Assembly: GCA_017432665.1 (NCBI GenBank)
Contig: JAFRIS010000019.1
Location: forward strand, 1 to 51,736
Direction of reading: 5' to 3'
DNA length: 51,736 bases
From: Bacilli bacterium
GTDB lineage: Bacteria > Bacillota_I > Bacilli_A > RF39 > UBA660
Part shown: positions 1 through 47,016 of the stretch, one piece after another
Layout: every line of letters starts with the position of its first letter
How positions within the stretch are numbered: position 1 is the first letter of the stretch
The notes under the pieces: model-generated
Database searches by the model: none
Told to the model about the DNA's origin: nothing
What the model saw: the letters and a program-made list of their open reading frames with translations, nothing else
Translations under genes and position numbers: made by a program

Positions 1-2453
1 CCACATGGACAAGGATCATTTCTACCTATCTTTTGTACTCTTTTAGGCTTTCTTTTGATAGGTGTTTCTTCTGAATCATTTGTTATCATTTTAGTTTTGT
101 TTTCTTGTCTTTCTAAGTTTTGTCTTATTTCTGCTTTTAATAACATAATTGATACATCTTTATCAACTTTTTGTAACATAGCATCAAACATATCAAAACC
201 TTCCATAGTATAAGCTCTTAATGGATCTTCTTGAGCATATCCTCTCAAATGAATACCTTCTCTTAAATGAGACATTGTATTGATATGTTCAGTCCAATAA
301 TTATCTAATACTTGAAGAGTAATTACTTTTTCAAATTCATCTGTTACTTCTCTTGGAATATCTTCCAATTTCTTTTCATATTCATCTATTACTCTTTTTG
401 ATAAGAAATCTATTAACTCAGGCGCTTCTAAACCAGCAATATCAGCTTTTTTAAGGTCTTTTCTCAATAAGTTTTCATTGGCAAATTCTCTTATTTCTTC
501 ATGATCTTCTTCAGTTAAGAATCCTTCTGGTGCTAAATGAGAATTAACTAAATCTTCAATGTGATGTCTAAATGTAGATAAAATCATTTCATGAATAGAT
601 TCATTATCTAAAATTTTATTTCTTTTATCATAAATAATCTCTCTTTGATTATTCATTACATCGTCATATTGTAGTAAGTTTTTACGAATATCAAAGTTAT
701 TTCCTTCAACTCTTTTTTGAGCAGTTCCAACTGATTTAGTAAATGTCTTAGATTGAATAGAATTATCACCAAATCCCATGTTTTCCATCATTGTACCAAT
801 TCTATCAGAACCAAATCTTACCATTAAATCATCTTTCATTGAGACAAAGAATTGTGTATATCCAGGATCTCCTTGACGACCAGAACGTCCACGTAACTGA
901 TTATCAATACGACGAGATTCATGTCTTTCAGTACCTACTACACATAATCCACCTAAAGCTCTTGTTTCATCTGATAATTTAATATCTGTACCACGACCAG
1001 CCATATTAGTAGCAATAGTTACTGATTTATTTAAACCAATCTTGGAAATAATTTCTGCTTCTCTTTCATGATTCTTAGCATTTAATATTTCATGTGGTAT
1101 TTTTGCTTTCTTTAATAAATCACTTATTAATTCGCTTGTTTCAATAGCAATTGTACCAATAAGTACTGGTTGCCCTTTTTCATATCTTTCTTTTACGAAA
1201 TTAATGATTGCCTTATATTTAGCTTCTTTACTAGCAAATACTAAATCTGGAGCATCAATTCTTACTACTGGCATATTAGTTGGTATTTCTACAACATACA
1301 TATTATAAATATTTCTAAATTCTTCTTCTTCTGTTTTAGCAGTACCTGTCATACCAGATAATTTCTTATACATTCTGAATAAGTTTTGGAAAGTAATAGT
1401 AGCCATTGTTTTAGTTTCTTCTTCAATAGTTACTCCTTCTTTAGCTTCTATTGCTTGGTGTAATCCCTCTGAATAAGCTCTACCTTTCATTAAACGTCCA
1501 GTAAATTGATCTACTATAACTATTTCATCATCTTGAACTACATAATCTACATCTCTTCTCATAGAATAATTAGCCCTTAATGCTTGATTAATAAAATGTA
1601 ATAACTTAGCATTTTCAATATCATATAAATTATTAATATGAAACATACTTTCTGCTTTACTAGAACCACTATCAGTTAAATTAACACTTTTAGTCTTTTC
1701 ATCATAAATATAATCTTTATCTTCTTTTAATCCTTTAGCATATCTATCTGCTTGAATATATAAATTAGAATTAGCTAATTCTCCACCAGAAATAATTAAT
1801 GGTGTTCTAGCTTCATCAATTAATACCGAGTCAACCTCATCAATAATAGCAAAGTTTAATGGTCTTTGAACTCTGTCTTCTTTTCTCACAACCATGTTAT
1901 CTCTTAAATAGTCAAATCCTATTTCATTATTAGTAGAGTATAAGATATCACAATTATAAGCTTCCTGTTTCTCTTCTGAATTCATTTCTCTAGTATTAAC
2001 TCCTACTGTTAAACCTAGGAATTTATGAATTCCTCCCATCCACTCAGCATCACGTCCAGCTAAGTATTCATTAACTGTAATAATATGTACTCCATCACCA
2101 GTTAAAGCATTTAAATAAGCTGGTAAAACTGAAGTTAATGTTTTTCCTTCACCAGTCTTCATCTCAGCAATATTACCATAATGGATTGCTAAACCACCTA
2201 AAATCTGTACATAAAAATGTTTCTCACCTATAACACGAAATGCTGCCTCTCTAGCAGTAGCAAAAGCTTCTACTAATATATCATCTAGTGTTTCACCGTT
2301 TTTTAATCTATCTTTAAACTCTTCTGTTTTATTTTGTAACTCTGTATCAGTTAATTTAGAATATTCTTCATCTAAAGCCATTACTTTATCAGCAATTTTT
2401 CTAAATCTTTTTAATTCACGATACTCATGATCAAATACTTTTAATATACTCAT
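1..2453 (-). CDS. secA: Preprotein translocase ATPase SecA; C-terminal end cut by window edge
   Basis: Absent from the ORF track because it is open at the edge. Reverse translation from the ATG at 2453 gives MSILKVFDHEYRELKRF. It contains AEMKTGEGKT (Walker A) and AIIDEVDSVLIDEARTP. It ends in NDPCPCG at nt 1-20, the start of the C-terminal zinc motif. Confidence 0.95.
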   Translation of the reverse strand, partial: MSILKVFDHEYRELKRFRKIADKVMALDEEYSKLTDTELQNKTEEFKDRLKNGETLDDILVEAFATAREAAFRVIGEKHFYVQILGGLAIHYGNIAEMKTGEGKTLTSVLPAYLNALTGDGVHIITVNEYLAGRDAEWMGGIHKFLGLTVGVNTREMNSEEKQEAYNCDILYSTNNEIGFDYLRDNMVVRKEDRVQRPLNFAIIDEVDSVLIDEARTPLIISGGELANSNLYIQADRYAKGLKEDKDYIYDEKTKSVNLTDSGSSKAESMFHINNLYDIENAKLLHFINQALRANYSMRRDVDYVVQDDEIVIVDQFTGRLMKGRAYSEGLHQAIEAKEGVTIEEETKTMATITFQNLFRMYKKLSGMTGTAKTEEEEFRNIYNMYVVEIPTNMPVVRIDAPDLVFASKEAKYKAIINFVKERYEKGQPVLIGTIAIETSELISDLLKKAKIPHEILNAKNHEREAEIISKIGLNKSVTIATNMAGRGTDIKLSDETRALGGLCVVGTERHESRRIDNQLRGRSGRQGDPGYTQFFVSMKDDLMVRFGSDRIGTMMENMGFGDNSIQSKTFTKSVGTAQKRVEGNNFDIRKNLLQYDDVMNNQREIIYDKRNKILDNESIHEMILSTFRHHIEDLVNSHLAPEGFLTEEDHEEIREFANENLLRKDLKKADIAGLEAPELIDFLSKRVIDEYEKKLEDIPREVTDEFEKVITLQVLDNYWTEHINTMSHLREGIHLRGYAQEDPLRAYTMEGFDMFDAMLQKVDKDVSIMLLKAEIRQNLERQENKTKMITNDSEETPIKRKPKRVQKIGRNDPCPC

Positions 2454-2483
2454 ATGTATCATCTCCTTCAAATACATATTTTA

Positions 2484-2522
2484 TCAAAAAAAAAAGAGAA
2501 TTTAAAGTATTATTCTCTTTTT
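2484..2522 (-). terminator. Intrinsic terminator after hpf
   Basis: Minus strand reads AAAGAGAAT, a 10-nt loop, ATTCTCTTT, then a long U run, just downstream of the hpf stop. Confidence 0.75.
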
Positions 2523-2527
2523 ATTAA

Positions 2528-3064
2528 TTATTCTGATTCGATAATTCCGTAATTCTCATCTTTTCTTTTATATATTACAGCAAAGTTATCTGTATCAGCA
2601 TCTTTAAACATAAAGAATTCGTGCCCTAGTAATTCCATTTGAAGAATAGCTTCTTCTTCACTCATTGGTTTTACTTCTACACTCTTTCTTTTTACTATTT
2701 TATGTTCTTCTTTATCTTTTTCATCATCAAAATCAATTGATGCAAAGTTAAAATCATAGCTAGGCTTAGATTGTCTAGCCATTAATCTAGTCTTATTCTT
2801 TCTGATTTGTCTTTCAAGCTTATCAATTGTCTTATCAACTGATGCATAAAAGTCCTCTCTAGTTTCTTCTGATCTTAAAATAATTGTTTTCAATGGTATG
2901 GTAATTTCTACAGTTTGCTCGTGACCTTTTACTTTAACTATGACGTTTGCGCGAACATTTTCGCTATTTTCTAGATATTTATCTAATTTTTCTAATTTCT
3001 CTTCAATATATTCACTCATAGCTTTAGTAACTTTGATCTTATCTCCATGAATAATAATTTCCAT
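2528..3064 (-). CDS. hpf: Ribosome hibernation promoting factor, long form (HPF/YvyD)
   Basis: 178 aa starting MEIIIHGDKIKVTKAMSEYIEEKLEKLDKYL, with the C-terminal dimerisation domain EEAILQMELLGHEFFMF. It lies directly upstream of secA as in B. subtilis. A TGCTATACT extended -10 lies upstream. Confidence 0.9.
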   Translation of the reverse strand: MEIIIHGDKIKVTKAMSEYIEEKLEKLDKYLENSENVRANVIVKVKGHEQTVEITIPLKTIILRSEETREDFYASVDKTIDKLERQIRKNKTRLMARQSKPSYDFNFASIDFDDEKDKEEHKIVKRKSVEVKPMSEEEAILQMELLGHEFFMFKDADTDNFAVIYKRKDENYGIIESE

Positions 3065-6338: not shown

Positions 6339-6777
6339 TGCTATTTTCCTCGTACTCAGTTATTTTATTGATTCTTCTCATATGTTTTTCTAAATTAGAA
6401 AACGGTGTATTAATAAAAGTCTTTACTATTTCTACTGCTTCTTCTTTAGGCGTTTTTTCTCCAAAAGCAACTATATTTGAATCATTATCTTCTCTAGTAT
6501 ATTTTGCTTCTTCACTATTAGATACTTTAGCACAACGTACTCCTTTTACTTTGTTACAAGCAATACTAATACCTATACCAGATCCACAAATAGCTACTCC
6601 AAAGTCTGCTCCTCCAGTTTTTATTAATTCTCCTAACATAAAAGCGTAATCAGGATAATCTACTGAGTCTTCATAATCAGTCCCTAAATCAATTACTTCA
6701 TATTCTTTTTCTAATTCTTTTTTTAAATACTCTTTTAATTTATATCCTCTATGATCATTAGCAATACCTATCTTCAT
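6328..6777 (-). CDS. rpiB: Ribose-5-phosphate isomerase B
   Basis: MKIGIANDHRGYKLKEYL and CGSGIGISIACNK. The start is set at the ATG at 6777 behind GGGTGG. Confidence 0.9.
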   Translation of the reverse strand: MKIGIANDHRGYKLKEYLKKELEKEYEVIDLGTDYEDSVDYPDYAFMLGELIKTGGADFGVAICGSGIGISIACNKVKGVRCAKVSNSEEAKYTREDNDSNIVAFGEKTPKEEAVEIVKTFINTPFSNLEKHMRRINKITEYEENSNDR

Positions 6778-6793
6778 TTTACCACCCATCTAA

Positions 6794-6802
6794 ATTATAA
6801 CA
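6794..6802 (-). promoter_or_regulatory. Extended -10 (TGTTATAAT) upstream of rpiB
   Basis: Exact TGTTATAAT on the minus strand between the terminator of the giant gene and the rpiB SD. The resulting leader would be very short. Confidence 0.5.
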
Positions 6803-6805
6803 TAA

Positions 6806-6838
6806 ACCAAATAAAAAGAAACAGAAACCTGTTTCTTT
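6806..6838 (-). terminator. Intrinsic terminator of the 1018-aa gene
   Basis: Minus strand reads AAAGAAACAG-GTTT-CTGTTTCTTT then TTTATTT, starting 4 nt after the stop. Confidence 0.85.
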
Positions 6839-6841
6839 ATA

Positions 6842-9800
6842 TTATTTATATAGCCATCTATAAGTTGAACTACATCCTGTGCTTGCTGCACCCCAACCTG
6901 TCCATTGTGAGCCACATGCATATCCACAACAGCCAACATCAGTACACTTAACACTACGCGCTCCAAAATGTTCGTCCCTACACTTTTTACACTTATTTAC
7001 TGTTACTGAACAACAACACCAACAACTATCTGCATATTTACCACAAATAGTACAGCCACTCTTCTTGCATGCTGTATAACTTGCTTTAGTAGTACATTTC
7101 CTTGACGTACTTGATGACATACCACACCACGTACAACTTGTGCCTTCTTTCCATTTTTTCTTCTTTTTACCGCAGCAAGTATTTGTACAAGTAGCAGCAA
7201 CATTCTTCTTAATATATTTATATTGTTTGTATGCCGTTATATTTACTGTACATGTCATAGAATTACCAACATTATCTTTGACCGTATAACTCTTATCTTT
7301 CTTTAATCCTGTATCCTTATGATCACTTCCACCTGGACAAGATACTACTCCTGATCCCCCATGATCACCACAACTATATTTTACCGTTACTCCATCTGTA
7401 GTATTTTGATGTGATTTATCTTTACTACAACTTGGTTTTTGCAAATCAACATAGATTTGAGCAGTGAAAGCAGCACAAGTTCGTACATTATCTGCATTAT
7501 CATAAATATTAAGGGCACCATAGTCTTTAGTTTTATAAGTATGCCCTGATTGAGCAAATGATTCAGAAAAGTAAACAGTTTTTTTACAACCACTATTTTT
7601 TACACTACTTGCAGAATCACGGCATTCACGAGTTATAGTTGTTCCTTTTCTACGCCAACTGCTACTTTGTCCACCTATATAGCAAGTTGGTTTTTTATAA
7701 TCTGAGTGAACTGTTTTATTAGCTGCACAAGTTCGTACATTTCCAGCCAAATCTTTAACAGAACCTCCAGCTCCTAGTCCATCAGCTCCAGCATTACTAA
7801 CATATAATTCTTTGTTATAAGTTCCATTGGATGGACTTCCATATATTGTAGAGAAAGTAGTTCTTCCTGTACATCCACTATTTTTATTTGATGCAGTCTC
7901 TTCACAAGTGGCTGTAACTGTAACTGTTTCTTGATTTCCAGATGAATCAAGTCCTATCCATCCAGCAGAATTTTCTCCTGGTGCAGTTTTTACTACATTA
8001 CATTTAGGCAATGTATAATCTACCCATACCTTTGTTACATCTGAAGGAGTTGATATATTACCAGCATTATCAACTGTTCTAAATGATATTTCATTTTTTC
8101 CTTCCAAATCTGTATTAAATAATATTGATCCTCCATTTTTGTTTGTAACACTTTTTGATGAATCATATTTTGCATCGATAGTATGTTCAAAACGATTCCA
8201 TCCAGACAAGTCTTCATCTAAAGTTTGATCCCATAAATCTGCTCCTCTATCTTTCTTATTGTTGTCACTTATAACAGTAGCAGAAGCAAATTGAACTTTT
8301 GACCAGTTACCACCTGCAGTTGGTGTATAGTTACTATATTCTACTTTAGGTGTCTTTGGCGGAGTTTTATCAATATTAGCTTTTATTCTCAATGTAACTG
8401 TGTTTCCTGCTTTATCTTTAACTGTTAATAATCCTTGTCTTCTTCCTTCTTTATTGAATCCAACTAAAATTACTTTCTTCTTAGTTCCACAGTTTCCCTT
8501 CCATTCTTCTGTTGAAACGGTAGAGGCATATCTATCATAAGCAGTTCCTGTACCTAATGTGCCATACACATCAGTATTAGGATTAGTAACATATGGTACA
8601 TTAGTTTCCCATTTCCAACTATCTAAGTGAATATTATCTGATATTTCTATTTTATAAATTACTCCATTTGGATATCTAGCATTATTCATCCAACCACCAA
8701 TTAAGTTATCATATTCACTAGTTTCTATAGTTCCGGTTCTAGATGAAGTATCATCATTAATTACCAAAGTTCCTTTAGAATAAGTATTTGTTGTATTTTC
8801 CTGTTTTCCATCTGCAGTTGATTTATAAGCTCCTAGAACATTTATTGTAGGTAGAGTTTTATCTACATTAACTTTTACACGACAACTATCTGGTGTAGGA
8901 TCTAAGTCACAAATACTATATTCATCTAATAGACTTCCTTGCAAGTTAAAATTTCCTGCATTATCCTGAACTTGAATATATCCATATTCAGCATCTGGTT
9001 GATGAGTATTTGGCCATGTTCTAGCAAATGTTGGTCTTATACAACCACTTCCATTACCATCATCACAAGTAACAGTTATAGTTCTACTCTTTTCTGGACT
9101 ATCTTTATTAATCCATGTATCTGATTCTCCAACTTTTTTATTAGTACATTTAGGATTATCAGGATCTTTTAATGTTCCTTGAGAAGGTGATTTTTCAATC
9201 ATACAACCTTTTTCATTAGTAACTTCTACTCTTGCACTAATATAGGTAGCAGTTGTAACATCTATATATTCACTAATTGGTCTAGTAACAGTTATATATT
9301 CCTCACCATTACCATTTAAAGCTCCAGAATTATATGCTTCATGTAAATCTGGTTCCCCTTCAGTTTTAACATAAATTGAATAATTATAACTTAAAATTTT
9401 AAGGTCTTCTCCATTTTCATCTTCCCCACCACTTATTTTTATAAATAGTGTTGCTTCTCTAAAATTATTTAACAATATATCACTACTTATTTCTTGTAGA
9501 CTACTATCCGTAAAATATATTTGAGGTTCTGAAGGTTTTGGAGTACATTCTGTCTCTTCAGGTGGTTCACCATCACCATTTACTTCATACTTATAATGAG
9601 TATTTGTTTCTTTAGAAACAACAACATATCCTCCTCTATCTTCTTTAAGATATTTCTTTTCAGCTAAAAATTCCGCAGTTAATGTTACTTTTCCACCAAC
9701 GTTTTTTGGTAAAGCGCTTTTATTAGCTTGCATATAGCTTTCTGCAGCCATTTTTAACGTGTTTTCATACATTTCTTTGTCTTCTTTATCTGCATTATTT

Positions 9801-9898
9801 CTAACATGTGAAACACTAGCGATTGCAATTACGCTTAAAATTCCTAGTATCACTATTGCAGCTAAAAGTTCGATCATTGTAAATCCTTTGTTTTTCAT
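6842..9898 (-). CDS. Giant modular type IV pilin-like protein (prepilin-type N-terminal signal, repeat modules, Cys-rich tail)
   Basis: The N-terminus MKNKG|FTMIELLAAIVILGILSVIAIASV has Gly-1, Phe+1, Glu+5 and a hydrophobic helix. A D-x-[AV]-[GD]-N motif occurs six times. Twenty of the last 115 residues are Cys. Confidence 0.8.
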   Translation of the reverse strand: MKNKGFTMIELLAAIVILGILSVIAIASVSHVRNNADKEDKEMYENTLKMAAESYMQANKSALPKNVGGKVTLTAEFLAEKKYLKEDRGGYVVVSKETNTHYKYEVNGDGEPPEETECTPKPSEPQIYFTDSSLQEISSDILLNNFREATLFIKISGGEDENGEDLKILSYNYSIYVKTEGEPDLHEAYNSGALNGNGEEYITVTRPISEYIDVTTATYISARVEVTNEKGCMIEKSPSQGTLKDPDNPKCTNKKVGESDTWINKDSPEKSRTITVTCDDGNGSGCIRPTFARTWPNTHQPDAEYGYIQVQDNAGNFNLQGSLLDEYSICDLDPTPDSCRVKVNVDKTLPTINVLGAYKSTADGKQENTTNTYSKGTLVINDDTSSRTGTIETSEYDNLIGGWMNNARYPNGVIYKIEISDNIHLDSWKWETNVPYVTNPNTDVYGTLGTGTAYDRYASTVSTEEWKGNCGTKKKVILVGFNKEGRRQGLLTVKDKAGNTVTLRIKANIDKTPPKTPKVEYSNYTPTAGGNWSKVQFASATVISDNNKKDRGADLWDQTLDEDLSGWNRFEHTIDAKYDSSKSVTNKNGGSILFNTDLEGKNEISFRTVDNAGNISTPSDVTKVWVDYTLPKCNVVKTAPGENSAGWIGLDSSGNQETVTVTATCEETASNKNSGCTGRTTFSTIYGSPSNGTYNKELYVSNAGADGLGAGGSVKDLAGNVRTCAANKTVHSDYKKPTCYIGGQSSSWRRKGTTITRECRDSASSVKNSGCKKTVYFSESFAQSGHTYKTKDYGALNIYDNADNVRTCAAFTAQIYVDLQKPSCSKDKSHQNTTDGVTVKYSCGDHGGSGVVSCPGGSDHKDTGLKKDKSYTVKDNVGNSMTCTVNITAYKQYKYIKKNVAATCTNTCCGKKKKKWKEGTSCTWCGMSSSTSRKCTTKASYTACKKSGCTICGKYADSCWCCCSVTVNKCKKCRDEHFGARSVKCTDVGCCGYACGSQWTGWGAASTGCSSTYRWLYK

Positions 9899-9915: not shown

Positions 9916-9944
9916 ATTATATCTTATGTATATATTTTTGTAAA
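9916..9944 (-). promoter_or_regulatory. Sigma-A-type promoter of the 1018-aa gene
   Basis: Minus strand reads TTTACA, a 17-nt spacer, then TATAAT. The AGGTGAGA SD follows at 9908-9901 and the ATG at 9898. Confidence 0.7.
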
Positions 9945-26497: not shown

Positions 26498-27493
26498 TTA
26501 TCTTGGTTGGCAATATGATGATCCATCGACTGCAACATCGCATCTCCATTCATCATTGTAAGCATAAGCTTGTCCTTGTAATGTTGCGTATGCGACAAAT
26601 CCATTTTTGCTTAAAGTACAGCGAGATGTATTACAACTTCCACCTAAACCAGTGATAACAACATTGTTTGCTGAAAAGATTGGTCTGTTTTCTTCAGCAG
26701 CTTCATTTATTCCACCAGTTAGATAATATTCATTATTTTCATAAATAAATCCTACTTCAGTTGATTCTACCTGATTATTAGTAATTTTGTGTCTTAAGAA
26801 TACTGTTTTATTAGTAGCACTATTCATAGCACTATAACTAGAATAAGTTACTCCCAAAGCAGCTGTTCCATCGCCAACTTCTACAACATCTGTGTTAGAA
26901 CGATATACATAATTTTCTGCAGTAGGTGGTTCTATAGCGTTACCATCTGCTTGCTTATAAGCAACTGTAAAACTAAGATTCAAATTTTGAGCACCGTTTG
27001 GTAATTGACTATTTTCTATATTCTTTTTAAATTCGATTCTTACTTTATATTTCTTTGATTGACCAGCACCTAACTTTTGATTCTCTGCTAAAGCTGTACC
27101 ATCACTATAAGTAACAGTATAAATTAAATAAGCAGGTAATGTAGTAATTGTTTCTCCATTCATTTTTGATGTAATAGAAGCAATCATAGCATCAAGAGTT
27201 CCACCATTTACAGCATCAACAGTAAACTCATAATAATCTCCTGGCTTTTCTAGTGTAATATTATAATTTACCGTTGTTAAAGACGAATCAATAGTAGCTT
27301 TATTAGCAGTACTTGTAGAGACACTTCCTGGAGTTATTTCAACATTATTCCAATGAATATCCCAACTAACGCTATCAATACCAGCTGTCCCTTGAATATT
27401 TAATGTTGACTGTAATACAGCATATCCAATACTAATTGCTAGTAATAATACTATTAAGACAATGATTACATTTCTTTTCTTGTTTTTTTTCAT
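26498..27493 (-). CDS. Secreted or membrane-anchored beta-rich protein of unknown function
   Basis: N-terminus MKKNKKRNVIIVLIVLLLAISIGYAVLQSTLNIQGTAG (basic stretch plus hydrophobic helix). The protein is rich in T, S, N and G. The last 50 aa carry four Cys (SCNTSRC...RCDVAVDGSSYC). Confidence 0.6.
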   Translation of the reverse strand: MKKNKKRNVIIVLIVLLLAISIGYAVLQSTLNIQGTAGIDSVSWDIHWNNVEITPGSVSTSTANKATIDSSLTTVNYNITLEKPGDYYEFTVDAVNGGTLDAMIASITSKMNGETITTLPAYLIYTVTYSDGTALAENQKLGAGQSKKYKVRIEFKKNIENSQLPNGAQNLNLSFTVAYKQADGNAIEPPTAENYVYRSNTDVVEVGDGTAALGVTYSSYSAMNSATNKTVFLRHKITNNQVESTEVGFIYENNEYYLTGGINEAAEENRPIFSANNVVITGLGGSCNTSRCTLSKNGFVAYATLQGQAYAYNDEWRCDVAVDGSSYCQPR

Positions 27494-35922: not shown

Positions 35923-36840
35923 TTATTTAACCTCGATATTCATATATTCTAACAATCTATTTAAATCATTATCATTTACAAAACTAATCTCAATCTTATT
36001 CTTTTTAACCACTACTTTCGTTCCTAATTTTTCACTTAATTCAGATTGTAAATAAACATATTGTGGATTTTTCTCTTCTCTTTTTCTTTGAGGATTAGTT
36101 TTAATAATTGTTGGTTCCATAGTTAGTTTTTCTAATTCTCTAACACTGATGCCATCATTTACTATCTTCTTAGCTAGTTCTTGTTGTTGATTTTCATCTT
36201 GTAATTTACTTAATACTCTAGCGTGTCCCATAGAAATTTCTTTATTGTTTATCTTCTCTTGAATGTTTTGAGGTAATGATAATAAACCTAACATATTAGT
36301 TATATGACTTCTACTCTTGCCTAGTCTTTTTGCTAGTTCTTCTTGAGTTAAAATTAAAGTCTCTTGTAATTTTTTATAAGCGTTTGCTTCTTCAATAGCT
36401 GATAAGTTTTCTCTTTGAAGGTTTTCAAGCAATGCTATTTCCATCATTTGTTGATCAGTAAAATCTTTAACGATAGCAGGTATTTCAGTTAATCCCACCA
36501 TACGGGATGCTTTTACTCTTCTTTCACCAGCTATTATTTCATATCCTTTTATAGATTTTTTAGCTATTATTGGTTGAATTACTCCATGTTCTTTAATAGA
36601 ATCAGCTAATTCTTGTAAAGCTACTTCATCAAAATTTTTTCTTGGCTGATATGGATTACTTCTTAATTCGTCTAACTTTAGCATAACTACTTCTTCTTTT
36701 GGAGTTTCGTTAACAATTTGTTCTTCAACTGTATTATAGTCAATTACATCATTACTAAATAGTTCTTCTAATCCTTTTCCTAAGGCTCTTCTCTTAGGAA
36801 TTCCACTTTCACTAATATTGTTTGTTTCCATTTCTCTCAA
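35923..36840 (-). CDS. spo0J: Chromosome partitioning protein ParB/Spo0J
   Basis: RSNPYQPRKNFDE and IIAGERRVKASR, with the Spo0J-type C-terminus KIEISFVNDNDLNRLLEYM. The start is uncertain: TTG at 36840 or ATG at 36831. Confidence 0.9.
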   Translation of the reverse strand: MREMETNNISESGIPKRRALGKGLEELFSNDVIDYNTVEEQIVNETPKEEVVMLKLDELRSNPYQPRKNFDEVALQELADSIKEHGVIQPIIAKKSIKGYEIIAGERRVKASRMVGLTEIPAIVKDFTDQQMMEIALLENLQRENLSAIEEANAYKKLQETLILTQEELAKRLGKSRSHITNMLGLLSLPQNIQEKINNKEISMGHARVLSKLQDENQQQELAKKIVNDGISVRELEKLTMEPTIIKTNPQRKREEKNPQYVYLQSELSEKLGTKVVVKKNKIEISFVNDNDLNRLLEYMNIEVK

Positions 36841-37606
36841 TCACTTCCTTTGCTAAATTAAGATATGCCTCTGCTCCTCTACTTTTTGGTTCATATGTTA
36901 TTATTGGTTCTCCATGCGATGGAGCTTCTGTTAATTTTACTAATCTTGGAATTATTGTATTATATACTTTTTCTTTAAAGAAACTTCTAATATCTTCAAC
37001 TACTTCAAATCCTAAGTTAGTTCTAGAATCTAGCATTGTTAGTAATACTCCTTCAATATCTAGACTAGGATTTAAAGTCTTTTGTGCTAACATAATTGTT
37101 TTTAATAATTGGGTTATTCCTTCTAGTGCAAAAAATTCACATTGAACAGGAATTATAACTGAATTAGAAGCTGTTAAAGCATTAGTTGTAATAACATCAA
37201 GTGCTGGTGGACAATCAAGAATAATGTAATCAAAATCATCTCTAACTGTAGCAAGACAATTCTTTAGTTGTTCACCTTTTTTATACCCTGCTTGAGTTCT
37301 ACTCTTTTCTAGTAATTCAGCATTTAATCCAGCTAGATTTATTGTTGATGGTATAACAAAAAATCTATCATATTTTGTTTTTACAATAGCATCTTTAATA
37401 TTACATTCACCAGTTAATACTTCATAAATACTTTTATTAATGTCTCCTTTGTTAATCCCAACACCTGTAGTTGTATTACCTTGAGGATCTAAATCAATTA
37501 AAAGTACTTTCTTCCCTAATACAGCTAGTGAAGCAGAAAGATTAATACTTGTTGTTGTTTTTCCAACCCCACCTTTTTGATTTACTAAAGATATAACCTT
37601 ACCCAT
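36812..37606 (-). CDS. soj: Chromosome partitioning ATPase ParA/Soj
   Basis: Deviant Walker A NQKGGVGKTTTSINLSA. Confidence 0.93.
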   Translation of the reverse strand: MGKVISLVNQKGGVGKTTTSINLSASLAVLGKKVLLIDLDPQGNTTTGVGINKGDINKSIYEVLTGECNIKDAIVKTKYDRFFVIPSTINLAGLNAELLEKSRTQAGYKKGEQLKNCLATVRDDFDYIILDCPPALDVITTNALTASNSVIIPVQCEFFALEGITQLLKTIMLAQKTLNPSLDIEGVLLTMLDSRTNLGFEVVEDIRSFFKEKVYNTIIPRLVKLTEAPSHGEPIITYEPKSRGAEAYLNLAKEVIERNGNKQY

Positions 37607-37634
37607 CTAATCACCCATTTCTGATTTCTTTTTT

Positions 37635-37643
37635 ATTGTACCA
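37635..37643 (-). promoter_or_regulatory. Extended -10 (TGGTACAAT) for soj-spo0J
   Basis: Minus strand reads TTTAAA, a 17-nt spacer, then TACAAT with TG at the extended position. Confidence 0.5.
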
Positions 37644-37671
37644 AATATTAGTCTTTTTTTAAATGCTTTTA

Positions 37672-37700
37672 GAAAAAAAAGTAGATTTTTATTAATCTAC
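37672..37700 (-). terminator. Intrinsic terminator after noc
   Basis: Minus strand reads GTAGATT-AATAAA-AATCTAC followed by 8 U. The first arm includes the stop codon. Confidence 0.8.
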
Positions 37701-38957
37701 TTTATCCTCAGTTTTATCAATCTTTATAATCATCTGATATGACTTTTCAAAGTCCATTTCATCAGCTGTTACTTTTATACCATGAGCCTTTAAATCTTCT
37801 ACTAAATCTTTAATCTTCTTTGATGCTTCATCTATTGTATATGTTTCAGTATCTTTTTCTTCTTGATTTATGATACTGGGAGGTAATTCAATTGATGATA
37901 AATCAGAAGTATTAAAATAATCAGATACTTTATCTTCATCTTCATCCATAGAATCAGTCTTTACTATTTTTTCTGCTGGAGTAATAAATTCATTAGCAGG
38001 AATTGAAGATGTCGGATTACCTAAATTTAATAAACTATCTAAAGCATTACCACTACTCTCTGGTTTTATATCATTACTTTTTTCCTTTATCGCATTAACA
38101 TCTACAGATGTTACAGATGGTGGAATAACTGCTGGTATTTGTTTTTCTTCTTCTTTGTCTATTTCTCCATAATTAACTATTTTTGCATTTGGCATTTCTT
38201 CACCCTCTGGAGGCGCAATAGTTACCTTTCCATAATTTGATTGATCCTCTTGCACTTCTGCAGTAGGAATTAAGGGATTATCATTAACAAAAGCTCCTAC
38301 TGAAGCAACCACTTCTTCTTTCTTCTCTTCTGGTTTTGGTGTTGTCTTACCTAACATACCTTTTATTTCATCTTCTAGGCTTCTAACACTCATTTTATTA
38401 TCAATGACTTTCTTAGCCATTTCTTTTTGTTTTTCAGGATCTTCTATATTTAGTAAAGCCCTAGCATGTCTTTCTGATAACTCTTCTTTTAATAAATACT
38501 CTTGTATTTCATCTGGTAAAGAAAGCAACCTTAGTTTATTAGATACTGCAGATTGACTTTTTCCCATTGTTCTAGCCAATTCATCTTGAGTCATTTGATC
38601 AATTTCTAGAATTTTTTGATATGTTCTTGCTTCTTCTATAGGATTTAGATTCTTTCTTTGAAGGTTTTCAAGTAAAGCTACTTTTGAACTTTCTTTATCA
38701 TCTAAATCTCTAATAATAGCAGGGATTTTAGTAAGACCAGCTAAAGCTGAAGCTTTATATCTTCTTTCACCAGCTATTATCTCATATTTGCCATTAACAC
38801 TTCGTACAATTATTGGTTGTATTACACCATGTTCTTTAATAGATACCGCTAATTCTTTTAAGGCTCTTTCATCAAATACTTCTCTGGGTTGAAACCTATT
38901 TGGAATAATGTCATCTAAGTATAATTGTACAACTTCGTCTTTAGTATCTGGATACAT
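37692..38957 (-). CDS. noc: ParB-family nucleoid occlusion protein (Noc-like) with a long low-complexity insertion
   Basis: IIPNRFQPREVFDE and IIAGERRYKASA, with the Noc-type C-terminus GIKVTADEMDFEKSYQMIIKIDK (compare B. subtilis GVKLNTEEEEFEEYIQLTIRIPK). The start is set at ATG 38957 behind GAGAGGGGA. Confidence 0.8.
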   Translation of the reverse strand: MYPDTKDEVVQLYLDDIIPNRFQPREVFDERALKELAVSIKEHGVIQPIIVRSVNGKYEIIAGERRYKASALAGLTKIPAIIRDLDDKESSKVALLENLQRKNLNPIEEARTYQKILEIDQMTQDELARTMGKSQSAVSNKLRLLSLPDEIQEYLLKEELSERHARALLNIEDPEKQKEMAKKVIDNKMSVRSLEDEIKGMLGKTTPKPEEKKEEVVASVGAFVNDNPLIPTAEVQEDQSNYGKVTIAPPEGEEMPNAKIVNYGEIDKEEEKQIPAVIPPSVTSVDVNAIKEKSNDIKPESSGNALDSLLNLGNPTSSIPANEFITPAEKIVKTDSMDEDEDKVSDYFNTSDLSSIELPPSIINQEEKDTETYTIDEASKKIKDLVEDLKAHGIKVTADEMDFEKSYQMIIKIDKTEDKVD

Positions 38958-38987
38958 ATTATTCCCCTCTCTATATTCTCTATTAGC

Positions 38988-39016
38988 ATTATACTTGATT
39001 TTACTATTTATTTCAA
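38988..39016 (-). promoter_or_regulatory. Sigma-A-type promoter of noc
   Basis: Minus strand reads TTGAAA, a 17-nt spacer, then TATAAT. Confidence 0.7.
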
Positions 39017-39023
39017 CTAAAAA

Positions 39024-39055
39024 CAAAAAAAGAAATTACATTTTTTGTAATCTCT
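39024..39055 (-). terminator. Intrinsic terminator of the 534-aa/98-aa cassette
   Basis: Minus strand reads AGAGATTACA-AAAAA-TGTAATTTCT (10 bp with one G-U pair) followed by 7 U. Confidence 0.85.
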
Positions 39056-39059
39056 TTTA

Positions 39060-39356
39060 TTACTTATTATCTTTGTTTTCTAATATTTCAGTTATTTTAT
39101 CAACTAAATCACATAAAGATGTTTGAATAGAACTTGCATAAACTACAACTGCTTCTACAAAATCTTCTTCTGATTCTTTATTTTTTTGTCCTTCTAAGAC
39201 ATCTTTTGTAATAATCATTTCATTTGCGCAACCGAGTTCAATACACATAGCATTAGTTAAACCAGTTATTATTTTTAGTTGTTCTAAGGCTATTTCTTTT
39301 TTTTCTTTTAATGAATTTTCTTTAAATTGTTCCATATATTGATTAAATTCTTTCAT
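39060..39356 (-). CDS. Hypothetical 98-aa acidic helical protein
   Basis: ATG at 39356 behind AGGTGA, 10 nt after the stop of the upstream gene. I recognise no motif. It has 3 Cys and no TM helix. Confidence 0.5.
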   Translation of the reverse strand: MKEFNQYMEQFKENSLKEKKEIALEQLKIITGLTNAMCIELGCANEMIITKDVLEGQKNKESEEDFVEAVVVYASSIQTSLCDLVDKITEILENKDNK

Positions 39357-39365
39357 ATTTTTCAC

Positions 39366-40970
39366 CTATTTAAACATTCCTTTTAATTCTTCTTGTTCTG
39401 ATTTTGATAATTCTGCTTTATCCATTAGCATTAAATATCTTGCCCATTTCCCAGTAACTTTGGCCATAGCTTTTTGAACTTCAGATAATCCATATACTTT
39501 TTTCTTAGCACTTGCTTTGGCATCATGTGTTGCTTGAAGTTCTTTTCCTTTTCCTTGTAAATCAAATTCCTGTTCTAACTTAGCCCAAGGTGAAAATCTT
39601 GCGTGTTCTCCCAAAAAATCATTACAAATAGCTACTAGTTTTTTTTCCATTTCTTTATTTCGTTTTTCCTTGTCAGGTCCTGTTAAATCATACATAGATT
39701 TTTCCTTATTATGTTCTTCTAATCTTCCTAATATTACATTTGCAAAACAAATTTGTAGCTTTTCTAATCTTTCTGATTTATTCTGATGATAATTTTCTGG
39801 TAAAGAAGATTCTGAATAATATTTTTCTTCTTTTGCTTTTATTCCGCGATATAAAATTGCTATATCTTCAACAGACATTAATCTTGTTGCAATATGAACT
39901 CTCTTCCTATAATTATCTATTTCACCGTTTTTATCATAACTATTTAAAAGTTTTTGACTTACTATCTTATTTATTGTGTTTTTTATTAGTTCTGGAGAAG
40001 CTATACTGGCTCCAAAATTTAGTACATAATCTTCATTTTTCTTTATTACAGAATCAACATTTCTTTTTTGTTCTGCACTTAAATTTCCATAGTATGCCAT
40101 AAATCTAGCATATGCTTGTTGGTATTTTGCTAAACTGTTTTTTATTCCTATTCTTTGAAACAATTCTGGATTTTTACCAGGTTCACTATATAATAACTCT
40201 CTAACTATCACATCAACAGTTAATAATCCCATATTCATAATATCAGTAGCTTGAATATTTTCTCTATTAGAATAATTCTCTATTTGTAATCCTCTATCTA
40301 AAACAGTTGCTGTATAGTAATATCCTGACTTAGAAAGTTCTGGATATACTTCACAAATCAGTTTTTTTTCATCATCAGTTAATCCCCATAATGTTGCTTT
40401 TTTATGAATGTGTTCTTCAATTATCTTATCTACTTCTTTTTTCTTTTCTTCTGGTGTTTGCTTTTTTAGTGGTTCTGAATTTATTACTTTTTTTTGTTTT
40501 GCATCTTCTGTTTTTTTCTGTTCATAAGCTTCTGTTATTTCTTTTGATCTTTCCCTATTTAGATTTTCAATTTGTATTTTAGCAGAGATATAACTATTCA
40601 TAGCTGATTTTAAAGTTCCAAATGTGTCATTTGCAATTCTATCTACAATTTTTTCGTGTTTTTCTCTATCCATCCTTACCATAAAAAGTTTTTGATGTTG
40701 CTTCAATATATCGCTAACCATTTCATAAGAAGGGGTTCTTGGTCTTTTATATTTTTCTACTTCTGTTATTATCTTATTTCTTATAATTCTTGCTTGTTGA
40801 TTGTCTACCTTACTCATTTGAGTTATTTTTGAACTTATTTTTTCTCTTTGTTTTTCTTTATCGAATTTTAATAAAGCTACACATGTTCTTATAATTAACA
40901 TGGCTAATTGCTTTTCTTTATCATATTTGGCGTATTCTTTATTGTAAAATTCATCACCTTTATACATATA
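39366..40970 (-). CDS. Hypothetical 534-aa Lys/Glu-rich cytoplasmic protein
   Basis: ATG at 40970 behind GAGGTGG (MYKGDEFYNKEYAKYDKEKQ...). It is a long uninterrupted ORF in AT-rich DNA with no TM helix, no signal peptide and no motif I recognise. Confidence 0.55.
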   Translation of the reverse strand, partial: YMYKGDEFYNKEYAKYDKEKQLAMLIIRTCVALLKFDKEKQREKISSKITQMSKVDNQQARIIRNKIITEVEKYKRPRTPSYEMVSDILKQHQKLFMVRMDREKHEKIVDRIANDTFGTLKSAMNSYISAKIQIENLNRERSKEITEAYEQKKTEDAKQKKVINSEPLKKQTPEEKKKEVDKIIEEHIHKKATLWGLTDDEKKLICEVYPELSKSGYYYTATVLDRGLQIENYSNRENIQATDIMNMGLLTVDVIVRELLYSEPGKNPELFQRIGIKNSLAKYQQAYARFMAYYGNLSAEQKRNVDSVIKKNEDYVLNFGASIASPELIKNTINKIVSQKLLNSYDKNGEIDNYRKRVHIATRLMSVEDIAILYRGIKAKEEKYYSESSLPENYHQNKSERLEKLQICFANVILGRLEEHNKEKSMYDLTGPDKEKRNKEMEKKLVAICNDFLGEHARFSPWAKLEQEFDLQGKGKELQATHDAKASAKKKVYGLSEVQKAMAKVTGKWARYLMLMDKAELSKSEQEELKGMFK

Positions 40971-40986
40971 AACCACCTCTATTATG

Positions 40987-40995
40987 ATTATAGCA
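40987..40995 (-). promoter_or_regulatory. Extended -10 (TGCTATAAT) for the 534-aa/98-aa cassette
   Basis: Exact TGCTATAAT on the minus strand, in the 57-nt gap after the rsmG stop. Confidence 0.6.
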
Positions 40996-41027
40996 TTATT
41001 TTCTTTTGATACAAAGAAAAACAAGTA

Positions 41028-41681
41028 TTAAATTACTTGTTTATGTTTCATTACCACTAAACTTCTTTTACTAGTTTCTTTTGGTAGTAAAAACTTATCT
41101 ATTTTAATAATTTTGTACTTTTTATTAAGTTTTTTTTCTACTTCTGGAGTTAATTCATTATCAATATCACCTTTCATAGCAACAAAAACTCCATCTTTAG
41201 AAACTAAATGCATAGTATAATTAACCAATTTCTCAATATTAGCAACTGCTCGTGAAGTAACTACATCAAAACTTCCTTTAAAATCTTCTCCCCTAACATG
41301 AATTGCTTCTATATTAGATAAATTCAATTCTTTTATCACTTCATTTAAGTAATTAATTCTCTTTTGTAGAGAATCTACTAAAGTTATTTTTAAATTTGGA
41401 AAAGCAATTTTTAAAACTATTCCTGGAAAACCTGCTCCTGTACCGATATCACATAAAGTTTTAGTATTCTTTAAATCAACTACTTTATTTAATGTGAGAC
41501 TATCATAAAAATGCTTTAAATAAACTTCTTCTTTATCAACAATTCTAGTTAAATTAATTTTTTGATTCCATTCAACTAACAATTTGTAAAAGAGTTCTAA
41601 TTGTTCTAATTGTTCATCTGTTAATGATATGTTTATTTTTTCTAATTCTATTAAAAATTCTTCTCTAGTCATTTTTACCAT
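41028..41681 (-). CDS. rsmG: 16S rRNA (guanine527-N7)-methyltransferase RsmG/GidB
   Basis: WNQKINLTRI and DIGTGAGFPGIVLKI. An alternative ATG at 41672 overlaps the mnmG stop. Confidence 0.92.
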   Translation of the reverse strand: MVKMTREEFLIELEKINISLTDEQLEQLELFYKLLVEWNQKINLTRIVDKEEVYLKHFYDSLTLNKVVDLKNTKTLCDIGTGAGFPGIVLKIAFPNLKITLVDSLQKRINYLNEVIKELNLSNIEAIHVRGEDFKGSFDVVTSRAVANIEKLVNYTMHLVSKDGVFVAMKGDIDNELTPEVEKKLNKKYKIIKIDKFLLPKETSKRSLVVMKHKQVI

Positions 41682-43533: not shown

Positions 43534-43547
43534 TTTCTCACCTCTTT

Positions 43548-44912: not shown

Positions 44913-44937
44913 GGTATCCCTCCTTTTTCCTGTACGT

Positions 44938-44946
44938 ATTATAGCA
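44938..44946 (-). promoter_or_regulatory. Extended -10 (TGCTATAAT) for mnmE-mnmG-rsmG
   Basis: Exact TGCTATAAT on the minus strand, upstream of the AAGGAGGGA SD. Confidence 0.6.
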
Positions 44947-44954
44947 TATTATTA

Positions 44955-44981
44955 ATAAAAAAAGAAGAATTATGCTTCTTC
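44955..44981 (-). terminator. Candidate terminator after jag
   Basis: Minus strand reads GAAGAA-GCATAA-TTCTTC followed by 7 U. The stem is short and overlaps the last codons. Confidence 0.5.
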
Positions 44982-46506: not shown

Positions 46507-46509
46507 TTC

Positions 46510-46854: not shown

Positions 46855-46893
46855 CCCTACCAGAGTAAAAAACCACTGTTTAGCAGCGGTATT

Positions 46894-47016
46894 TTATTTA
46901 CATAGTACTTTGCGTCCTTTACGACGACGACGATTCAAAATATTTGTTTTTTTACGTGCAAAAAAACCAAGTTTCTTAGATTTTTTACGGTTATTTGGTT
47001 GATATGTTCTTTTCAT
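46894..47016 (-). CDS. rpmH: 50S ribosomal protein L34
   Basis: Below the ORF-track size cutoff. Reverse translation from ATG 47016 gives [40 protein letters not shown], behind a GGAGGTGGAAGG SD. Confidence 0.93.

Follow-up and report, generated by a model that had tools for sequence, protein, structure and literature searches.

A conserved cysteine-rich end-domain on a giant modular type IV pilin of uncultured rumen and gut Bacilli

PilB and PilC of S. sanguinis, which like the host of the protein described here is a monoderm member of the Bacillota, each consist of a prepilin signal, a pilin module and a C-terminal module (a vWA module in PilB and a lectin module in PilC), and these modules are presumed to be exposed at the tip of the pilus and to act in adhesion (PMC8179133). 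CofB of ETEC is likewise built from a pilin module, a linker and beta-rich ligand-binding domains located at the tip (PMC8179133). More than 1,200 modular pilins in 264 architectures have been recorded, and many others escape detection for want of database signatures in their modules (Raynaud et al. 2021, PMC8179133), and modular pilins have been proposed to act as pilus-tip adhesins (PMC8179133). A precedent from the class Bacilli that links type IV pilin-type proteins to an extracytoplasmic thiol oxidase is the ComGC/BdbDC system of B. subtilis (Meima et al. 2002, cited in PMC10246001).

The protein that we describe here shares, by its sequence, the overall plan of PilB and PilC. It is far larger than either of them (1018 aa) and has a stalk of multiple Ig-like modules, its end-module is a 115-aa Cys-rich domain without an InterPro or Pfam signature, and its gene stands alone between housekeeping genes, outside any pil locus. 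No sequence similarity to CofB was detected and, unlike the gene described here, cofB is encoded inside its pilus operon; to our knowledge, CofB bears no Cys-rich end-module. ComGC-type pilins that depend on disulfides contain, as far as we know, at most one or two of these bonds, whereas the present protein would imply about 20 overall and about 10 in its tail.

The protein is the 1018-aa translation product of a minus-strand open reading frame at 6842..9898 of the window (by which we mean the whole stretch of DNA that was analysed, 51,736 nucleotides in length). The gene and the part of its product that lies upstream of the tail comprise the following features.

9916..9944, minus strand: sigma-70-like promoter, TTTACA-17-TATAAT, with 11/12 matches, called by consensus match only
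9884..9898, minus strand: prepilin leader MKNKG, residues 1-5, with predicted cleavage between G5 and F6 (PF07963, TIGR02532)
9725..9883, minus strand: residues 6-58, with FTMIE as the mature N-terminus (Glu at +5) followed by the long hydrophobic alpha1 helix (PF07963, TIGR02532, AF2)
9569..9724, minus strand: small globular pilin head, about residues 59-110 (AF2 strands 70-74, 91-96 and 102-107)
7196..9532, minus strand: stalk of all-beta Ig-like modules, about residues 123-901 (AF2, Foldseek)
6842..6844, minus strand: stop codon TAA
6815..6838, minus strand: intrinsic-terminator-like hairpin with a 10-bp stem and a T-rich run, a few bases past the stop codon

The pilin gene is flanked by rpmE and rpiB, its promoter-like sequence sits directly 5' of the start codon inside the short gap between rpmE and the pilin gene, and the gene appears to be a separate transcription unit. 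The surrounding genes (rpmE, murA, fba, rpiB, a DUF1146 gene and mreB) recur as a set at orthologous loci. The pilin gene is present in identical form on two further assembled contigs, from two other samples; one of these (L001) matches the window sequence and the other (L002) differs from it in a patch of secA only, so that the pilin gene offers no informative polymorphisms for a strain-level selection test.

The protein begins with MKNKG|FTMIELLAAIVILGILSVIAIASV, in which a basic leader, a Glu at position +5 and a hydrophobic stretch make up a class III signal. Its N-terminus scores above the curated cutoffs for PF07963 N_methyl (28.9 bits, cutoff 21.2) and for TIGR02532 IV_pilin_GFxxxE (30.7 bits, cutoff 16.3), and weak N-terminal matches to ComGE, GspG and ComGC models reach residues 57-78. 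The tail had been assigned in a preliminary description of this DNA to an extracellular Gram-positive protein, and the prepilin motif bears this out, identifying the carrier as an exported protein of the pilin type. In the full-length AF2 model (mean pLDDT 80.5) a helix spans residues 9-58 and is followed by a small beta-sheet head, as in the pilin fold; in pilins the alpha1 helix is the polymerisation or membrane segment. The stalk is modelled with pLDDT values mostly between 80 and 96 and resembles chains of multiple Ig domains in Foldseek comparisons (for example the GhpA neck, 9flp, E = 2e-11); it gives weak Big_13 and OmpL47-type matches in Pfam and NCBIfam, and its last several modules carry a D-x-A-G-N motif and conserved Cys. 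The 1018 residues thus run from a class III prepilin signal and an alpha1 helix through an Ig-like stalk to the tail, an arrangement in which a pilin module (up to about residue 110), Ig-like modules and a Cys-rich end-module can be told apart as in other modular pilins. A motif scan of the whole 51.7-kb window, together with reading of its ORF translations by eye, revealed no second prepilin motif. The window contains no PilB/C/D or ComG genes, and none was seen in the 10 kb around those family members that were examined; assembly into a filament is for this reason only putative.

The tail (C904-K1018, window 7189..6845) contains 20 Cys in 115 residues (17.4%), where the mean Cys content of the window's 45 ORFs of at least 150 aa is 1.0% and the pilin protein ranks highest. 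Translation of 6842..9898 confirms the count given in the preliminary description, together with the CxxC pairs (CTWC 922-925, CTIC 949-952 and CKKC 970-973), the CC and CCC clusters (at 908-909 and 990-991, and at 961-963, respectively) and the RWLYK end. The tail can be divided into three blocks, the last of which contains a predicted hairpin.

7121..7189, minus strand: N-block, C904-G926, with 5 Cys and the invariant C922-x-x-C925-G at its end (ortholog alignment, block counts)
6992..7120, minus strand: middle insert, residues 927-969, 8 Cys, hypervariable (block counts, identities)
6845..6991, minus strand: C-block, C970-K1018, 7 Cys, CCGYACGSQWTGWGAASTGC...RWLYK, beginning with the invariant C970-x-x-C973 (ortholog alignment, block counts)
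6845..6925, minus strand: terminal beta-hairpin, residues 992-1018, with strands 993-999 and 1011-1017 (AF2)

A further 20 Cys, many of them conserved across the family, lie in the pilin body and bring the total to 40; by our reading of their positions they sit in the repeated beta modules. It follows that the whole exported protein is rich in Cys, beyond the tail alone. The general rule with which the tail had been contrasted, that exported proteins of such bacteria are poor in Cys, holds mainly for aerobic Firmicutes and is less strict in anaerobic ones (PMC2823432). At the DNA level, GC content is 0.36-0.39 across 6751-7200 and about 0.30 on both sides, and short spurious ORFs occur there on both strands (6879..7079 on the plus strand, 7003..7203 and 6790..6966 on the minus strand), much as the preliminary description had it. 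Rfam and tandem-repeat scans returned no feature overlapping the tail.

The tail abounds in Cys, Ser, Thr and Gly, and the window's copy has one His. Its net charge lies between +10 and +18 in all orthologs, while that of the body ranges from -22 to +26, and aromatic residues make up 10-15% of the ortholog tails. The residues I, L, V, M and F account for 2-7% of the tail as against 17-21% of the body, leaving little for a hydrophobic core, which argues that covalent cross-links are needed for the fold. The terminal hairpin, in which a loop carrying W999 and W1002 lies between the invariant C995 and C1009, is the sole part of the tail that AF2 predicts confidently (pLDDT 73-87 in the full-length model and about 70 in a tail-only model). 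The tail-only model, made with a 17-sequence alignment, has a pLDDT of 47.6, and residues 906-991, including the middle insert, remain below 50; the pairing topology that we propose below therefore has no support from the models.

We found 103 members of the family, many of which cover 100% of the query, tail included. Some 20 orthologs show the same enrichment of the tail in Cys, and most of the 103 members show it in different sequence forms; it is thus not due to chance. In 17 orthologs the tail is 34-52% identical to that of the window, with 16 invariant columns that include 8 Cys and 4 Gly. Mean pairwise identity among orthologs is 46% in the N-block, 23% in the middle insert (which varies in length from 30 to 63 aa) and 53% in the C-block, the most conserved part. 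The orthologs P0010 and P0011 have all of their 45 Cys in common in spite of 148 residue differences, and diverge by 6.8% in the tail and 14.8% in the body. Frameshifted or truncated tails in relatives, which would have pointed to non-functional sequence, were looked for, and the orthologs proved intact in this region. The terminal C and W/R/Y columns are kept in an alignment across two tail types, A (the type of the window) and B. Paralogous giant pilins bear many alternative Cys-rich end-modules, including CGV repeats and, in the distant paralogs P0098 and P0087, true TSP1 repeats (PF19030, 25.5 bits, cutoff 23.8).

The preliminary description could name no family of pilins or adhesins that carries a tail of this kind, and a match to a known Cys-rich family, which would have overturned it, did not emerge from our searches. 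Pfam (including Chitin_bind_1 and TSP_1) and NCBIfam gave nothing on the tail, and PDB profile searches gave non-significant matches only, the best for the tail profile being to RPC10 or Rpb9 over all three knuckles (E = 0.15). A tail HMM matched 12 clusters among 1.84 billion representatives, and 11 of these are the pilin family itself or its fragments. The twelfth (P0108) is a weak match to a eukaryotic protein in which RanBP2-type zinc fingers are repeated eight times; its E value of 6.8e-5 is summed over these 8 repeats, and the match covers profile positions 9-46 only. A scan of JGI metagenomes with the patterns CGS[QE]WT[GSD]W and GC[KSR]Sx[SY]R[KW]LY gave 234 matches, none of which was confirmed as a tail. 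The tail is therefore a conserved, lineage-restricted domain without described relatives, carried by uncultured rumen and gut Bacilli.

Several known domains were considered in their own right. Small disulfide-rich domains such as tendamistat, hevein/CBM18 and TSP1 are short, poor in hydrophobic core, braced by disulfides and equipped with exposed aromatics, as the tail would be, but none has a significant sequence relationship to the tail. Between the terminal C-x13-C hairpin with its W-x-x-W and the C11-C27 hairpin of tendamistat there is a weak alignment (E = 0.09), which we treat as a lead only, as we do the presumed resemblance to the hevein CCSQWGW motif, for which there is no Pfam match. 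A TSP1 repeat, which the terminal WxxW...C...R.LY suggests to the eye, was rejected, since Pfam TSP_1 did not match and the probability from hhalign of the terminal subdomain with the TSP1 repeats found in the family was 0.6%. Membership of the zinc ribbons was set aside for want of a significant profile match and in view of Cys counts of 22 and 26 and of single losses to K or T, and a RiPP-like Cys-modified peptide because no modifying enzyme adjoins the gene and the precursor would be an exported protein of 1018 aa.

The distribution of the cysteines points to how the tail may be held together. Even-numbered Cys content is an accepted sign of disulfide formation, and anaerobic Gram-positives as a group show no such bias (PMC2823432). 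The number of tail Cys is even in 18/18 type-A orthologs (16, 20, 22, 24, 26 or 28) and also in type-B tails (16, 10, 12 and 14), and the middle insert has an even number in 17/17 orthologs (2-10). In each of the same 17 orthologs the C-block has two Cys more than the N-block (17/17), the (N,C) classes being (8,10), (7,9), (6,8) and three different (5,7) architectures; the blocks of P0104 and P0105 were counted by eye and both agree with this rule. Cys have been lost together from the N- and C-blocks in at least five structurally different events, each loss in one block being matched by one in the other. The two Cys that the (7,9) clade has lost occupied non-homologous positions of a duplicated CTKxCCGxxTCTSGxCCG[WY] unit and are now K and T, which argues for partner loss and against gene conversion or the swapping of metal ligands. 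Even parity and one-for-one co-loss, from comparative counts on 17-20 related sequences in which the alignment of the variable part is uncertain, favour a disulfide-knotted cap over a metal site or thioether, and indicate that about 10 disulfide bonds may hold the tail together. Among 90 full-length family members 30 have an odd total of Cys, so that some Cys in the family must be unpaired. The hosts inhabit the rumen and gut, which are reducing and anaerobic, and this counts against disulfides.

Our preferred reading, to which we give somewhat better than even chances, is that the tail is the distal, disulfide-knotted, ligand-binding end-domain of a giant modular type IV pilin. C904, C908, C909, C922 and C925 of the N-block would pair with C970, C973, C985, C990 and C991 of the C-block and so zip the two ends of the tail together, a C995-C1009 bond would staple the terminal beta-hairpin, whose loop would display two Trp, and the eight Cys of the middle insert would pair among themselves. 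Such bonds would make of the tail a rigid knob, strongly cationic, aromatic and resistant to proteases, kept off the cell by the Ig-like stalk and serving as the adhesive tip of a pilus or of a membrane-anchored fibril, in which a conserved frame would present a fast-evolving insert. Its likely ligands would be anionic or glycan-rich surfaces met in the rumen or gut, among them polysaccharides of plant cell walls or of mucin, and other cells. The constant positive charge, the aromatics, the conserved frame with its hypervariable insert and the alternative end-modules of the paralogs all argue for a probable role of the tail as a binding tip. Rumen Ruminococcus is reported to adhere to cellulose with the participation of type IV pili (references listed in PMC3672088). 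Folding of such a tail would require an extracytoplasmic thiol oxidase; a thioredoxin-motif scan of the window and 26 related loci (about 450 kb, a small fraction of the genomes) found no DsbA/BdbD-like, DsbB or VKOR-like gene.

Besides the knotted cap, the preliminary description had offered a metal-binding or redox-active tip and a substrate for Cys-directed modification, and these two options have fared less well. The first would make the tail a metal-thiolate domain, with Cys4 zinc ribbons or knuckles or a metallothionein-like cluster that is stable in the anoxic habitat, acting as a structural, metal-binding or redox tip. The invariant C922-x2-C925-G and C970-x2-C973 do look like two zinc-ribbon knuckles, CCGYxCG-x2-W resembles the last knuckle of TFIIS-type ribbons, and the CxxCG...CxxC...CCGxxCGxxW spacing of the tail is shared with TFIIS/RPC10-type ribbons and RanBP2-type fingers, to which its best matches (RPC10 or Rpb9 in the PDB and, as the only HMM match outside the family, the RanBP2-type finger protein) belong; an anaerobic habitat with no Dsb-like gene seen nearby would also favour thiolates over disulfides. 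These matches are non-significant in the PDB searches, and profiles rich in Cys are in general prone to align with zinc fingers. Unlike those of zinc ribbons, the Cys of this extracellular tail do not come in fours: their counts are even, yet often not multiples of four. His is scarce, and the loss of one Cys from each block, as from (8,10) to (7,9), would cripple a metal site, especially as the replacements are K and T rather than H, D or E. We consider a metal-thiolate domain unlikely.

A second alternative, which we regard as rather improbable, would place the protein in the transformation pilus, of the competence (Com) type, as a minor pilin of unusual size that captures extracellular DNA with its cationic, cross-linked tail. 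B. subtilis competence needs BdbDC, reported to act on the cysteines of ComGC (Meima 2002, as cited in PMC10246001). The positive charge of the tail in every ortholog would suit DNA capture, and a TfoX_N gene lies about 7 kb downstream at the syntenic locus L024. The pilin N-terminus scores best against the ComGE, ComGC and GspG models, but all scores against the ComG family are far under the curated cutoffs and a comG operon is absent near all family members examined. Moreover, a hypervariable insert is not expected for sequence-independent binding of DNA, and the presence in each genome of several paralogs with unrelated end-modules suits diversified adhesins better.

It is also conceivable, but very unlikely, that the cationic tail binds the anionic wall polymers of its own cell and that the protein is an element of the wall or sheath rather than a tip. 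The positive charge of the tail is conserved regardless of that of the body, and with no pilus machinery nearby the prepilin N-terminus might be a membrane anchor only. Fast diversification of the insert and swapping of end-modules fit varied external ligands better, and an Ig-like stalk of nearly 800 residues is the typical design of a projecting adhesin.

Cross-linking of the tail by thioethers of the lanthionine, sactionine or ranthipeptide type, the form that a Cys-directed modification would take, is highly improbable, since bonds from Cys to Ser, Thr or carbon would impose neither even parity nor co-loss of Cys. The Cys-, Ser-, Thr- and Gly-rich composition of the tail would suit such enzymes, and a radical-SAM/SPASM gene does lie 5.5 kb upstream of the distant paralog P0042 (locus L025), where a RecD2-like helicase gene and other ORFs separate it from the pilin gene. 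In the window and at L003 and L024 no radical-SAM, SPASM or Lan enzyme is encoded within 10 kb, and the carrier is an exported protein of 1018 aa rather than a short leader-bearing peptide. That the tail is non-functional low-complexity sequence, or an artefact of annotation or assembly at the 3' end, is suggested by its biased composition and by the low AF2 confidence at residues 906-991, but this scarcely credible reading appears effectively refuted by the sequence conservation, namely the maintenance of frame, of the invariant Cys and Gly columns and of the terminal motif in orthologs at such low tail identity and the smaller divergence of the tail than of the body in P0010 and P0011, to which the identical assemblies from two further samples and the terminator-like hairpin directly 3' of the gene may be added.

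Returning to the disulfide-knotted tip, we tentatively suggest, as a possibility less probable than the general reading, that the tail is a 'frame-and-insert' recognition domain on the tip of a type IV pilus, in which the zipper of disulfides between the N- and C-blocks would be the scaffold and the separately bonded hypervariable insert the ligand surface. Knottin scaffolds and antibody loops would be functional analogues of such a domain. If this is true, these strictly anaerobic Bacilli would run an extracytoplasmic oxidative-folding pathway dedicated to an entire family of paralogous giant pilins rich in Cys, at odds with the avoidance of Cys generally attributed to the exported proteins of Firmicutes.

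Modular type IV pilins are recognised as carriers of tip modules, most of which are uncharacterised. The tail described here defines a new domain family that databases have missed and that is confined to uncultured rumen and gut Bacilli. If, as the comparison suggests, its 115 residues hold about 10 disulfides and the full-length protein about 20, the protein would rank among the most densely cross-linked of bacterial surface proteins, and this cross-linking would occur in anaerobic Firmicutes, which have been thought to avoid Cys in exported proteins or to leave them unpaired. If confirmed, the protein would be a tractable test case for oxidative folding in anaerobic monoderms and a compact, hyperstable scaffold whose insert varies in nature, and it would be a candidate adhesin with which abundant uncultured gut bacteria may attach to feed particles, mucus and other cells.

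The Cys-rich tail forms the C-terminus of a 1018-aa pilin, and the elements of the pilin gene and its surroundings are the following.

6842..9898, minus strand: ORF encoding the pilin (1018 aa)
7189..6845, minus strand: Cys-rich tail, residues 904-1018, with 20 Cys in 115 aa (17.4%)
9944..9916, minus strand: strong promoter-like site, TTTACA-17-TATAAT, upstream of the pilin gene
6838..6815, minus strand: terminator-like hairpin, a few bases past the pilin stop codon
10194-10226, minus strand: L31-Firmicutes ribosomal protein leader (RF03156; 38.4 bits against a gathering score of 33.3), upstream of rpmE

Translation of the ORF reads identically to the tail sequence given in the preliminary description, whose count of 20 Cys in 115 aa agrees with ours and whose motifs (CTWC, CTIC, CKKC, CC twice, CCC once, and the ending RWLYK) are all present. 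The tail DNA had also been described as less AT-rich, which is borne out by a GC content of 0.36-0.39 over the tail compared to ~0.30 around it, and the extra short ORFs claimed for both strands appear in the ORF listing. Cys averages 1.0% across the window's 45 long ORFs (≥150 aa), the pilin being the highest. A point not stressed previously is that the body of the pilin (the protein without its tail) holds 20 further Cys, many of them invariant or nearly so family-wide and located in repeated beta modules.

At its N-terminus the protein bears a class III (prepilin) signal, MKNKG/FTMIELLAAIVILGILSV, on which PF07963 and TIGR02532 exceed their curated cutoffs; the ComGE, GspG and ComGC models match the first 60-78 residues below threshold. 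In a full-length AlphaFold2 (AF2) model, made with 47 homologs as input (mean pLDDT 80.5), a predicted helix (residues 9-58) is followed by a small beta head and then by unbroken beta modules to residue 901. A Foldseek search of the PDB with this model returned chains of Ig-like domains, including the GhpA grappling-hook neck (E = 2e-11), alpha2-macroglobulins and protocadherin. Because of the prepilin signal, the modelled helix, head and beta modules, and these Ig-like chains, we assign the protein to the 'modular pilins' as defined by Raynaud et al. 2021 (PMC8179133), of which it is a giant example. Modular pilins are already known, being widespread, very diverse and probably located at the tip, and many have been overlooked for want of database signatures for their extra modules (PMC8179133); what is new here is the tail module and its predicted degree of cross-linking.

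The pilin gene stands alone between rpmE, the gene immediately upstream, and rpiB-DUF1146-mreB, with housekeeping genes all around and with dnaA/dnaN/recF about 40 kb away; the window contains neither genes for pilus assembly nor another prepilin. The position of the gene is conserved for the orthologs P0003 and P0005, and more distant paralogs lie elsewhere, often behind an ORF of ~140-165 aa without a Pfam hit and sometimes behind another giant prepilin. In a syntenic ortholog locus, a gene for a TfoX_N protein (competence regulator N-terminal domain; L024 19992-20285) lies downstream of secA, an observation that bears on the alternative of a competence pilus. Over 13.4 kb, a contig from another sample (L002) differs from the window only by 146 mismatches, all of which cluster in 2 kb inside secA (window 1001-3000), in what looks like a recombination patch between otherwise identical strains. 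Elsewhere in the window, a 331-aa ORF (26498-27493, minus strand) starts with a signal-anchor (MKKNKKRNVIIVLIVLLLAISIGYAVLQSTLNIQGTAG...), carries a cluster of four Cys within the final 50 residues, and may encode another exported Cys-containing surface protein. Positions 35923-51727, as read from ORF translations alone, appear to be the chromosomal origin region, with parB/noc-like, parA-like, rsmG, mnmG, mnmE, jag and yidC-like genes followed by three further genes.

47295-48686: dnaA
48810-49937: dnaN
50615-51727: recF

The preliminary description knew of no pilin or adhesin family with such a tail, and our searches concur. Neither Pfam nor NCBIfam has a match on this tail or on representative tails of other types. 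A profile built from 17 orthologous tails, when searched against 1.84 billion representative proteins, gave 12 matches, 11 of which are members or fragments of the pilin family and one of which, a weak match, is a eukaryotic protein that has eight zinc fingers of the RanBP2 type. Among PDB sequences, the top-scoring matches were non-significant, both for the tail profile (RPC10/Rpb9 zinc ribbons, E = 0.15) and for the terminal subdomain (tendamistat, E = 0.09). AF2 failed to fold residues 906-991; confidence is confined to the last 27 residues (pLDDT 73-87), predicted to be a beta-hairpin whose strands, 993-999 and 1011-1017, enclose the loop T-G-W-G-A-A-S-T-G-C.

The tail is functional sequence, because the reading frame is retained in orthologs at just 34-52% tail identity, together with the terminal motif CCGYxCGSxWxxWGxxSTGCxSxSRxLY[KY] and 16 columns that never vary (8 Cys, 4 Gly, plus Y, K, R and Y), because none of the 148 residue differences between the close pair P0010 and P0011 falls at any of their 45 Cys, and because two further samples yielded an identical assembly of the gene. 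This pair diverges by 6.8% in the tail versus 14.8% in the body. Among orthologs, mean identity is 46% in the N-block (C904-G926), 53% in the C-block (C970-K1018) and 23% in the intervening insert (residues 927-969 here; 30-63 aa), so that the domain looks like a conserved cross-linked frame bearing a fast-evolving insert. The tail is a real, conserved, lineage-restricted new end-domain of a giant modular type IV pilin.

Counting as tail everything past the conserved QY[KR]Y strand, we find an even number of Cys (16, 20, 22, 24, 26 or 28) in 18/18 type-A tails (those orthologous to the window's) and also in type-B tails (the different, W-rich tails of paralogs). In bioinformatics, an even-Cys bias is accepted as a sign that disulfides form (PMC2823432). 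The Cys were further divided at two invariant knuckles, C922xxC925G and C970xxC973.

Cys in the N-block/middle block/C-block of type-A tails
Window: 5/8/7
One ortholog: 6/6/8
Two orthologs: 7/4/9
One ortholog: 7/6/9
Nine orthologs: 8/x/10, x = 2 to 10
Three more orthologs: 5/4/7

The middle block is even throughout, and without exception the C-block has two Cys more than the N-block; P0104 (7/4/9) and P0105 (8/4/10), counted by eye, conform too. Tails departing from 8/10 show five or more distinct architectures. The 7/9 clade has K and T in place of two Cys, at positions that are not the same within the duplicated unit CTKxCCGxxTCTSGxCCG[WY]; the window's N-block retains the first half of this unit and its C-block the complementary part, an arrangement that is reversed in P0023 and P0026. 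The two extra C-block Cys, C995 and C1009, are invariant family-wide. Such a pattern would be expected if N-block and C-block Cys were bonded one to one, C995 were bonded to C1009, and the insert were paired internally. Concerted evolution of the two repeats would not be expected to produce it, since homologous positions would then vanish, and those lost in the 7/9 clade are non-homologous.

Three options had been put forward for the tail, namely metal or redox chemistry, a disulfide cap, and Cys-directed modification; parity and co-loss favour the cap and speak against the other two. Thioether modification is not expected from the pattern, since it imposes no Cys-Cys parity. The only candidate Cys-modifying enzyme seen near any family member, a radical-SAM/SPASM protein (L025 3302-4507), is encoded 5.5 kb upstream of the distant paralog P0042, but a RecD2-like helicase and other genes separate the two, which are probably unrelated. 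Nor are Cys4 metal sites expected, as Cys would then be lost in fours or change to H, D or E, and the observed pattern differs. Several points weaken the disulfide reading: the habitat is reducing, anaerobic Gram-positives as a group have no even-Cys bias (PMC2823432), no Dsb-like genes were seen in the limited DNA available (the window and related loci), and total Cys is odd in 30 of the 90 full-length family members. Within Bacilli there is a precedent in the link of BdbDC to the competence pilin ComGC in B. subtilis (Meima 2002, as cited in PMC10246001), and PMC12453122 reports predicted disulfide-forming enzymes in clostridia. We consider a disulfide-knotted, cationic binding cap the best explanation of the tail. 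In every ortholog its net charge is +10 to +18 (body, -22 to +26), and it is 2-7% aliphatic versus about 20% for the body, with 10-15% aromatics and 29-42% Ser + Thr + Gly.

All 103 homologs of the pilin are metagenome- or MAG-derived and none carries a name. Among GTDB species representatives the family occurs in MAGs only, labeled uncultured Bacillales, Bacilli, Erysipelotrichaceae, Mycoplasma sp. or just bacterium; a Candidatus Peribacteria MAG adds one weak partial match. Where the source can be identified, rumen, sheep duodenum and Hadza gut are among those represented. Genomes carry several paralogs (at least 4 loci in CAMNCL01), up to three of them in tandem.

Tandem giant prepilin genes (650-1400 aa) at related loci
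L008: 1994, 6679, 10013
L021: 10013, 12424
L022: 3835, 6206
L004: 5291, 10013

These tandem and multiple loci suggest a paralogous, diversifying surface-protein family, in which end-modules are swapped freely. Besides type-B tails, the same scaffold carries 14-residue tandem repeats (C-G-V-x-x-Y-x-x-C-x-x-x-x-x, often ending CWH or CYHY) in P0034, P0038, P0045, P0047, P0053, P0055 and P0041-P0043, on which the sole Pfam signal is a sub-threshold match to Lysostaphin_N repeats (E = 6e-4). Genuine thrombospondin type-1 (TSP1) repeats (CSxxCGGG...) are present in the distant giant prepilins P0098 (~960-1190; PF19030 TSP1_ADAMTS, 25.5 bits against a cutoff of 23.8) and P0087 (~490-530; several TSP1 models narrowly under their cutoffs), an unusual union with a bacterial type IV pilin.

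Braced by about 10 disulfides, the tail would be a rigid, cationic and aromatic knob that caps the Ig-like stalk at its distal end. The protein would either sit at the tip of a type IV filament or be exposed as a membrane-anchored fibril, and the knob would bind a ligand outside the cell, one that is probably glycan-rich or anionic. An adhesive role finds circumstantial support in the family's swapping of end-modules, in the precedent of PilB and like modular pilins, which are adhesins (PMC8179133), and in references in PMC3672088 that report participation of type IV pili in cellulose adhesion by rumen Ruminococcus.
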